Below, piece by piece: positions 29,306-29,845 of a DNA stretch of 64,000 nt. Each line of letters starts with the position of its first letter. Positions within the stretch are counted from its first letter, which is position 1. The notes under the pieces were generated by a model. The model was given only the letters and a program-made list of their open reading frames with translations. It was not told where the DNA came from and made no database searches. The position numbers were made by a program, and so were the translations under genes. This stretch comes from Escherichia phage vB_EcoM_G4507. The stretch is taken from sequence record NC_054919.1; one strand, written 5' to 3'.

Positions 29306-29483
29306 CTAAACGAATAGGTTCATGAATGCCATATCCCTGAACAGAAATTTCTGTCGTGGGATAAATTCCATCAATATCACCCATATTCCAGGCTTCATTA
29401 AATTGCTGTTCGCCTGAATTACTAAACCACTCGGCGAAAGCATTTAGCACATCTTCAGAACCTTCAATAATTATCTTTGCCAT
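29262..29483 (-). CDS. Small hypothetical protein
   Basis: ORF track. Confidence 0.45.
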   Translation of the reverse strand: MAKIIIEGSEDVLNAFAEWFSNSGEQQFNEAWNMGDIDGIYPTTEISVQGYGIHEPIRLVEYDLCTGEEVKYD

Positions 29484-29845
29484 TACAAACTCTCGGTGAA
29501 GGTACGAGCGATAACGTCGCGCTGCTGTTCCGGAGTCAGAGAGTTAAAGCGAACTGCATAACCGGATACACGGATGGTCAGCTGCGGATATTTTTCCGGA
29601 TGCTTAACTGCATCTTCCAGAGTTTCACGACGCAGAACGTTAACGTTCAGGTGTTGACCACCTTCAATTTTAACTGTAGGTTGTGTTTCAATTTCAATTT
29701 CACGGGCATGCAAACCGTAGAAAATTTCCGGGTCTACAAAAGAGTCCTCTTTAAAGGTTTTAGAGACAATAATTCGTGCTTGAATACCATCTTCAAAATA
29801 AATAGTACCTTTATGTGTGCCTTCAAGAATTTGATATGCTTTCAT
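29483..29845 (-). CDS. Autonomous glycyl radical cofactor (GrcA/YfiD-like)
   Basis: C-terminal [60 protein letters not shown] carries the RVSGYAV glycyl-radical motif; 3' half is visibly GC-richer than flanks. Confidence 0.8.

Follow-up and report, generated by a model that had tools for sequence, protein, structure and literature searches.

Host-identical glycyl-radical segment within vs.6, a GrcA-like gene of T4-like phages

The vs.6 gene and its host-identical tract

The window analyzed here, a 64,000-nucleotide (nt) stretch of Escherichia phage vB_EcoM_G4507 (NC_054919.1), is a segment of a Tequatrovirus (T4-like) genome in which the T4 lysozyme, nudE, regB, vs, and tk neighbors are recognizable. 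On its minus strand lies the ortholog of T4 vs.6 (protein Y06I), which encodes a GrcA-like autonomous glycyl-radical cofactor, and the 3′ half of this gene contains a tract identical to Escherichia coli grcA. The gene order, e ... vs.8, vs.7, vs.6, vs.5, vs.4, vs.3, regB, matches T4 and Escherichia phage ECP52, the closest record, in which the gene is 100% identical. The window protein and T4 Vs.6/Y06I (NP_049730) are equal in length and share 118 of 120 amino acids (98.3%), with T54P and R73H in T4. Full-length identity, position between vs.7 and vs.5, and location in the early region from regB to e all place the gene in the vs.6 orthologous group. The original prediction, made from the letters of the window, had named Y06I as a T4 homolog; the homology stands, but the window gene is the Y06I ortholog itself and not a separate homolog.

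At 120 amino acids, Vs.6 is a small stand-alone protein with a terminal glycyl-radical domain. Pfam Gly_radical (PF01228) matches residues 60–101 (E = 2.2e-18), residues 22–120 align to residues 28–127 of E. coli GrcA (6OWR), and residues 58–120 align to residues 697–759 at the C terminus of pyruvate formate-lyase (PFL, PflB; E = 5e-26). The motif RVSGYAV occupies residues 92–98. The codon for Gly95 (29561–29563) aligns with the radical glycine of GrcA, which we take to be Gly102, giving a seven-residue offset. Against the GrcA equivalog model TIGR04365, the whole protein scores 154.6 bits and misses the cutoff (170) because its N-terminal region has diverged; by sequence criteria, Vs.6 is a GrcA-like homolog rather than a strict GrcA equivalog.

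In the tract encoding the glycyl-radical domain, 169 of 169 nt are those of the commonest E. coli grcA allele, our reference. A BLASTN search of 5,426 complete genomes of E. coli found grcA in all of them, at best 97.3% identical across gene nt 179–363 (185 nt); the five mismatches of this longer match are all synonymous and confined to the last 16 nt. The 169-nt tract is present at 100% identity in ∼45% of these genomes, a share estimated from evenly spaced matches, and at 99% or more in 5,156. Upstream of nt 179, identity to grcA drops from 100% to ∼40% within one codon. At the protein level, 60 of the last 61 residues are shared with E. coli GrcA, the sole difference being I60 versus V. The replaced segment starts exactly at the start of the Pfam domain (residue 60), and the boundary between the disordered N terminus and the glycyl-radical domain of GrcA has been placed in this region too (PMC13450708).

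Composition changes along with identity. The 5′ part has a GC content of 0.34 and a third-codon-position GC (GC3) of 0.20, the 3′ part has values of 0.50 and 0.45, and the window mean GC is 0.351. Only 0.65% of 169-nt segments across the 64 kb are as GC-rich as the host-identical block; the remaining GC-rich segments belong to the tRNA cluster or to a glycine-rich part of gp12. Nothing else in the entire window gives a megablast match to E. coli chromosomes. The motif, the near residue-for-residue match to the GrcA C terminus, and the shift from AT-rich to GC-richer sequence had all been pointed out in the original prediction and are borne out here. Its proposal that the gene is chimeric, with a 3′ half from the host, is supported by the uneven composition and by the nucleotide identity to host grcA, and the boundary is sharper than that prediction could show; host origin does not, however, extend over the full 3′ half, as the patch ends 16 nt before the end of the gene and is a replacement within it.

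Conservation of the protein does not account for this identity. When the same amino acids were encoded with codons drawn from the 51 long open reading frames (ORFs) of the window (20,000 runs), the nucleotide identity was 0.770 ± 0.023, with a maximum of 0.855; under window codon usage, a match at all 55 codons has a probability of ∼1e-29. Chance and protein constraint are excluded as the source of the identity, which at 100% over the tract lies far above the ∼77% that conservation of the protein would give. We also compared each phage homolog with its best match in a panel of 81 host grcA genes. Homologs from Karamvirus (CC31/PG7 type), RB43-like, Slopekvirus, T5-like, and jumbo phages encode nearly the same C-terminal peptide at 71%–87% nucleotide identity to the best host, and GC3 is low in such unconverted homologs. 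Among hosts, grcA genes from other Enterobacterales match the tract at 143–155 of 169 nt (14–26 differences; 85%–92%), although their proteins share 58–60 of 61 residues, and that of a cryptic Escherichia species matches at 167 of 169 nt (99%). Synonymous divergence (dS) of grcA is 0.43 between E. coli and Citrobacter and 1.15 between E. coli and Salmonella, and spans 0.4–1.4 among host orthologs overall. We considered pflB as the donor and rejected it in favor of grcA because the block is just 80% identical to pflB at the nucleotide level. A viral contig with a full-length host-like grcA (L112; 91% nucleotide identity) was likewise set aside as a case of whole-gene capture; it has the host N terminus, and the contig is probably of prophage origin with a fragment of host DNA.

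The 5′ half of vs.6 has a different history. It is ∼36% identical at the amino acid level to the N terminus of E. coli GrcA (BLASTP, E = 5e-6), and its 59 residues are seven fewer than in the GrcA counterpart. It is shared with Mosigvirus at 53 of 59 residues, Jiaodavirus at 42, Karamvirus at 41, and RB43-like phages at 33, with a dS of 1.5 against Jiaodavirus. The backbone is thus a phage homolog of grcA that is old, rich in AT, and passed on vertically within the T4-like phages. Since the 5′ half is homologous to the GrcA N terminus, vs.6 is an older phage gene in which one segment has been replaced, and not a fusion. Informative sites scored against three phage relatives as phage-type (P) or host-type (H) follow the pattern P...P H(about 30) P P. 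The features by which psbA-type mosaics are recognized, namely a segment closer to the host, definable breakpoints, and a shift in composition, are all present in vs.6.

Table 1. Positions of vs.6, its parts, and other features in the 64-kb window
Feature	Position	Strand	Basis
vs.6/Y06I ortholog coding sequence, GrcA-like autonomous glycyl-radical cofactor, 120 aa	29483..29845	-	ORF and homology
Phage-type 5′ part, codons 1–59 and first base of codon 60, AT-rich	29668..29845	-	Composition, homology
Host-derived tract encoding the glycyl-radical domain (EGGQH...IARTF)	29499..29667 (gene nt 179–347)	-	169/169 nt identical to E. coli grcA
Glycyl-radical motif RVSGYAV, residues 92–98	29552..29572	-	Sequence; 6OWR and PFL alignment
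Phage-type tail, last 5 codons and stop (TTC ACC GAG AGT TTG TAA)	29483..29498	-	Base-by-base comparison
GAGG, Shine-Dalgarno-like, 5 nt before the vs.6 ATG, overlapping the vs.7 stop	29851..29854	-	Sequence
vs.5 ortholog, 73 aa, translationally coupled neighbor downstream	29262..29483	-	ORF; annotated vs.5 in related phages
nrdG, 156 aa	9120–9590	-	ORF
nrdD, uninterrupted 605-aa ORF	9587–11404	-	ORF
RTCGY motif of the NrdD glycyl-radical domain	9662–9676	-	
12 tRNA genes (Lys, Arg, His, Asn, Tyr, Met, Thr, Ser, Pro, Gly, Leu, Gln)	36552–38192	-	

Distribution of the tract and its alleles among phages

The mosaic is common to T4 and to hundreds of Tequatrovirus and Mosigvirus genomes, and the event is not private to the window phage. 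The transfer from host to phage put forward in the original prediction is retained, but not as a property of this phage. In GenBank, 389 phage records carry the tract at 99% identity or more and 252 at 95%–99% (641 at 95% or more); below 95% comes a gap that holds just 2 records (90%–95%), and after it 107 Klebsiella-phage records at 80%–90%.

We compared in detail 19 E. coli and Shigella phages, comprising 14 Tequatrovirus (including T4 and the window phage) and 5 Mosigvirus. Their blocks differ from the common E. coli allele at 0–4 sites (mean 1.3), with zero differences in 7 of the 19. Synonymous codon differences between Tequatrovirus and Mosigvirus amount to 0.214 in the 5′ half and 0.052 in the block, a 4-fold reduction, and block distances are star-like about the E. 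coli allele, with a mean of 1.3 to E. coli versus 3.0 between the genera. In addition, the two single-nucleotide polymorphisms (SNPs) sampled within the block in E. coli, 192 A/G and 219 T/C, are the variants that recur among the phages. These data favor several copying events or one late, spreading event, and either fits the E. coli phages. We note that the block of Escherichia phage vB_Eco_Some (L206; OZ034686.1, 123–563) contains a 79-nt tandem duplication (CCATCCGTG...CGTACCTT, twice) that shifts the frame; faulty assembly or aberrant recombination could each have produced it.

The 3′ edge is less uniform. At tail nt 348, 351, 354, 357, and 358, the E. coli-type bases are T, T, A, C, and C and the phage-type bases are C, C, G, T, and T, and the 19 phages show seven different mixtures of the two. 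Several form nested tract endpoints: nt 347 in the window phage and Lutter; nt 350 in L085, teqhal, and SCS4; nt 353 in L084, Sf24, and SHBML-50-1; and nt 356 in T4. All five tail codons are polymorphic, as against 14 of 56 in the block (Fisher p = 0.002). The tail adjoins the next gene, with the vs.6 stop overlapping the vs.5 ATG (TAATG) and a GAGAG, the probable ribosome-binding site of vs.5, lying 6 nt before that ATG.

The anatomy of vs.6 in Klebsiella phages of the genus Jiaodavirus is alike, with a 5′ half of GC3 0.25, a block of GC3 0.62, and a phage-type tail (TTCACAGAGGCACTATAATG). The left edge of the tract (codon 60) is the same as in the window and the right edge nearly so. Host-matched residues include LEDAVKH in the E. 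coli type and LLDAVEH in the Klebsiella type. Against an 80-genome panel without K. pneumoniae, the Jiaodavirus blocks were only 91%–95% host-like, which was resolved by a pattern scan of metagenomes and a search of a plasmid collection. The exact 56-nt block pattern was found in 24 bacterial contigs (GC 0.53–0.58, with full-length grcA) and 2 phage contigs, and chromosome records mislabeled within the plasmid collection served as the K. pneumoniae reference. The bacterial contigs carry a major grcA allele, K1 (21 contigs), and a second, K2 (L172). The K1 contig is 99.8% identical to K. pneumoniae over 5.85 kb. Over 10 kb, the K2 contig and the K1 contigs share 93.7% identity, so that a sister species of K. 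pneumoniae is the likely K2 donor.

Phages match both alleles. Viral contig L158 is K1 across the ∼146 block nt that it retains, the L174 and L109 blocks are K1 plus one site, and Jiaodavirus 17-11 is K2 at all six K1/K2-distinguishing sites shown; the 168-nt comparison counts a seventh difference for 17-11, located in the left-junction codon. Outside the block, 17-11 and L174 are almost the same, with 1 difference in 177 nt of the 5′ half and 2 in 500 nt downstream; within it, they differ at 5 of 168 nt, all five at sites that separate K1 from K2. GenBank Klebsiella phages show both allele classes as well. These alleles require at least two independent and very recent host-to-phage replacements within Jiaodavirus. 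The L109 gene (601–959 of a 167-kb Jiaodavirus-like contig from IMG/VR) also has a 1-nt deletion in its 5′ half, ∼40 nt upstream of the block, which breaks the frame and is either a sequencing error or a pseudogene mutation.

A tract from a third kind of host is found in T4-like contig L104, from a human metagenome, where ∼85 nt (56 nt exact) match Haemophilus grcA. Its relatives L102, L105, and L107 are without the Haemophilus-type tract (best split, Fisher p = 7e-9), and the overwrite in L104 probably came from its own host.

Other phage homologs are of unconverted or different type. Slopekvirus was considered as an old conversion, since it has the Klebsiella-type LLDAVEH residues, and was rejected; its block is only 80%–82% identical to alleles of the K. 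pneumoniae complex. In Klebsiella phage Olmo (Pseudotevenvirus; L168, 1–455), whose block is unconverted (135 of 168 nt to K. pneumoniae alleles), a homing endonuclease gene lies directly upstream of the grcA homolog. T5-like contigs (L125–L151, including T5) encode a GrcA-like protein ending in FTQAM, with blocks 76%–78% identical to hosts and no recent patch. The PflB C terminus, presumably TFTQSM, resembles this ending more than the FTESL of GrcA, which suggests a separate origin of the T5-like protein from pflB. Finally, IMG/VR contigs L153–L163 (GC 0.43–0.49) contain ORFs of up to 302 amino acids, several cut at the contig end, with a GrcA-like C-terminal domain that is 83%–85% identical to enterobacterial grcA at the nucleotide level and has the tail FTQxM; these are possibly prophage-borne fusions.

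Origin of the tract

Considered together, these data make it very likely that the glycyl-radical segment of vs.6 was overwritten by host grcA through homologous recombination or gene conversion, within a backbone that is an old phage homolog. On sequence grounds, the direction of transfer is from host to phage because the block has host composition, nests within Escherichia alleles, and follows host phylogeny. The phage-type tail was found in none of the 5,426 E. coli genomes (best match, 97.3% over 185 nt). Private phage changes in the block appear to be mostly GC to AT, as read off the variant table rather than counted by script, and would fit host DNA decaying toward phage composition.

A plausible course of events can be outlined. 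During infection, fragments of host chromosome carrying grcA would pair with ∼185 bp of homologous vs.6, and a double crossover or repair synthesis would copy host sequence into the phage gene. Recombination through UvsX/UvsY is very active in T4, which can recombine with homologous sequences of such size on plasmids. The left edge would be fixed at the start of EGGQH (codon 60) because identity upstream is too low for pairing, and the right edge would resolve within the last codons because homology stops at the stop codon. The vs.5 start and the probable GAGAG site would need to be preserved, so that vs.5 may limit extension of the patch, and the variable 3′ endpoints would fit resolution of a heteroduplex at the tract end. 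The first, homeologous event, at ∼80% identity, would be the rarest. A patch that leaves ∼170 bp of perfect identity between phage and host would make re-copying easier, and the segment could then track the allele of the current host species.

Several points weigh against recombinational overwriting as we describe it. T4 degrades cytosine-containing host DNA, and copying events should therefore be rare. The homologs of Karamvirus, Slopekvirus, RB43-like phages, and Krischvirus are unconverted, and a Salmonella-type block was not found in GenBank phages (best 83.8%). The mechanism is deduced from the anatomy of the tract and not from an observed enzyme or intermediate. A single acquisition followed by phage-to-phage spread explains most of the E. 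coli-phage data, and the argument from shared SNPs consists of two sites only. Moreover, the selective benefit of the patch is unproven because unconverted phages encode an almost identical protein segment.

T-even-type phages carry hydroxymethylcytosine DNA. We put forward only tentatively, and hold to be rather doubtful, the broader proposal that the glycyl-radical segment and the host chromosome continue to evolve in concert. Under this proposal, strictly lytic T-even-type phages would routinely copy ∼170 bp from host grcA, the tract would register whichever host species came last (E. coli, K. pneumoniae, its sister species, or Haemophilus), and the exchange would be favored by the matching of the spare part to host PFL and PFL-activase.

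Of the explanations that dispense with repeated copying, the one closest to the data holds that the patch arose once in the ancestor of Tequatrovirus and Mosigvirus, or in one event that spread from phage to phage, and that the tract has stayed E. coli-like for want of time or through constraint. T-even phages recombine freely among themselves, the left edge is the same in all 19 E. coli and Shigella phages, and each phage has few private changes, as expected of a tract that is not continuously reset. We nevertheless think it unlikely, given the 4-fold deficit of synonymous divergence in the block relative to the 5′ half, the star-like distances around the E. coli allele with 7 phages at zero differences, the varying 3′ edge (nt 347, 350, 353, or 356), the match of phage variants at 192 and 219 to E. 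coli SNPs, and the repeated host-to-phage events in Jiaodavirus. Recent capture of a whole host grcA followed by very fast divergence of its 5′ half is very improbable. Although homology of that half to the GrcA N terminus can still be detected, and this region is described as disordered (PMC13450708) and so is possibly weakly constrained, its composition is that of the phage, it is common at 33–53 of 59 residues to T4-like genera with different 3′ halves, and both the collapse of identity within one codon and the dS of 1.5 against Jiaodavirus speak against a recent common source.

The remaining two explanations would do without any transfer in nature. Convergent selection on nucleotides in phage and host, for RNA structure or codon optimization, would have to favor host-optimal codons, as the block fits phage codon usage less well than the 5′ half does (0.53 versus 0.72). 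The codons of grcA are typical of highly expressed E. coli genes, which counts in its favor. However, host orthologs vary freely at synonymous sites, phages on the same hosts (Krischvirus on E. coli and Slopekvirus on Klebsiella) are only ∼70%–82% identical, and the Klebsiella phages agree at each distinguishing site with one or the other of two bacterial alleles, so that we give convergence almost no credence. Less credible still is an assembly artifact or contamination with host reads. A 169-nt host-identical stretch does resemble a chimeric assembly, but the reading frame is kept across the junctions, the tract runs on directly into the phage-type tail and flanks, and the mosaic is also present in the T4 reference and the 641 GenBank phage records.

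Relation to known systems and neighboring features

The gene and its biochemistry are already known; the host-tracking nucleotide mosaic is an unusually clean case of a known process. T4 Y06I and E. coli YfiD (GrcA) are the two validated spare-part proteins; both receive a glycyl radical from the PFL-activating enzyme (PFL-AE), bind PFL that oxygen has cleaved, and return it to activity (PMC8683613, PMC13450708). For T4 Y06I, activation by PFL-AE and restoration of oxygen-cleaved PFL are reported by Wagner et al. (2001; cited in PMC8683613). Given its close identity to Y06I, the window protein would be charged by the host PFL-activating enzyme and would then restore oxygen-cleaved PFL. A phage that shuts off host transcription may gain by supplying the part itself, keeping up fermentative acetyl-CoA and ATP in the microaerobic gut. 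In the literature we found only this biochemistry and no account of a nucleotide-level mosaic or of host-allele tracking, although an earlier remark is possible (T4 genome review, PMC150520; Wagner et al., 2001).

T4 Vs.6 shares the vs.7-vs.6-vs.5 setting as well as the mosaic structure around an E. coli-identical block, but its E. coli-type bases run 9 nt farther and it has one private change in the block (nt 218). E. coli GrcA has the domain order of Vs.6, in which the glycyl-radical domain comes after an N-terminal region, and differs in the sequence of that N-terminal region and in being expressed from its own host promoter, in contrast to the phage operon of vs.6. The E. coli grcA promoter is regulated by oxygen and pH. 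The C-terminal domain of PflB (PDB 1H16, among others) aligns with Vs.6 over the portion that the spare-part protein is thought to replace. The closest evolutionary parallel is psbA and psbD of cyanophages, metabolic genes of T4-like phages in which intragenic host-phage recombination has left patchy GC and host-exchanged segments (Zeidner et al., 2005; Sullivan et al., 2006, PMC1484495). The process is of the same kind; vs.6 differs in having a single block with exact edges, 100% identity, and a nameable donor species, in showing only the host-to-phage direction, in that near-identical phages differ by host allele, and in involving enterobacterial hosts and T-even-type phages. It would extend intragenic exchange of the psbA type to an anaerobic-metabolism gene in gut phages.

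The vs.6 pattern cleanly illustrates how, in nature, a strictly lytic phage has recombined with the chromosome of its host. Host DNA is destroyed by T-even phages, and to our knowledge host-chromosome recombination is for that reason rarely documented for them. A tract that copies the allele of the host species could mark the host species of T4-like phages in metagenomes and could act as a natural reporter of phage-host homologous recombination and of conversion-tract length. On the practical side, the 169 host-identical nt may trip contamination filters applied to phage assemblies, and reads from E. coli grcA will cross-map to hundreds of phage genomes, as phage reads will to E. coli.

A promoter and terminator scan of 29000–31500 returned 12 promoter-like sites versus 10.4 expected from shuffles, with no convincing private promoter for vs.6, which is probably transcribed within an upstream polycistronic transcript. 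The downstream neighbor vs.5 has no Pfam family. The original prediction had also raised the relationship of the gene to anaerobic nrdD and nrdG. These lie on the same strand 18 kb away, NrdD has its own RTCGY-type domain, the region gives no megablast match to E. coli, and in NCBIfam vs.6 matches families of the GrcA and PFL type and not NrdD. Nothing linking them was found, and this suggestion is dropped; vs.6 is unrelated to nrdD/nrdG. The gene for endonuclease VII (gp49) adjoins nrdG and nrdD within 9120–11874 on the minus strand, and the window nrdD is uninterrupted, unlike that of T4, which we take to carry a group I intron.

Most other GC-rich spots in the window derive from the tRNA cluster, whose 12 genes compare with what we take to be 8 in T4. 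The tRNA-Tyr region (∼37524–37617) is 88% identical to the tRNA-Tyr of some E. coli plasmids. The only other stretch that is as GC-rich and outside the tRNA genes, 57186–57372, lies within a gp12-like (short tail fiber) ORF (56273–57823, plus strand) and gives no megablast match to E. coli. Upstream of vs.7, the interval 30179–31428 begins with a vs.8-like ORF (30179–30772) and, between this and lysozyme e (31429–31923), contains a single internal-head-protein-like ORF (∼30866–31340). T4 has denV, ipII, and ipIII in the interval from vs.8 to e, and denV is absent from its T4 position in the window phage.

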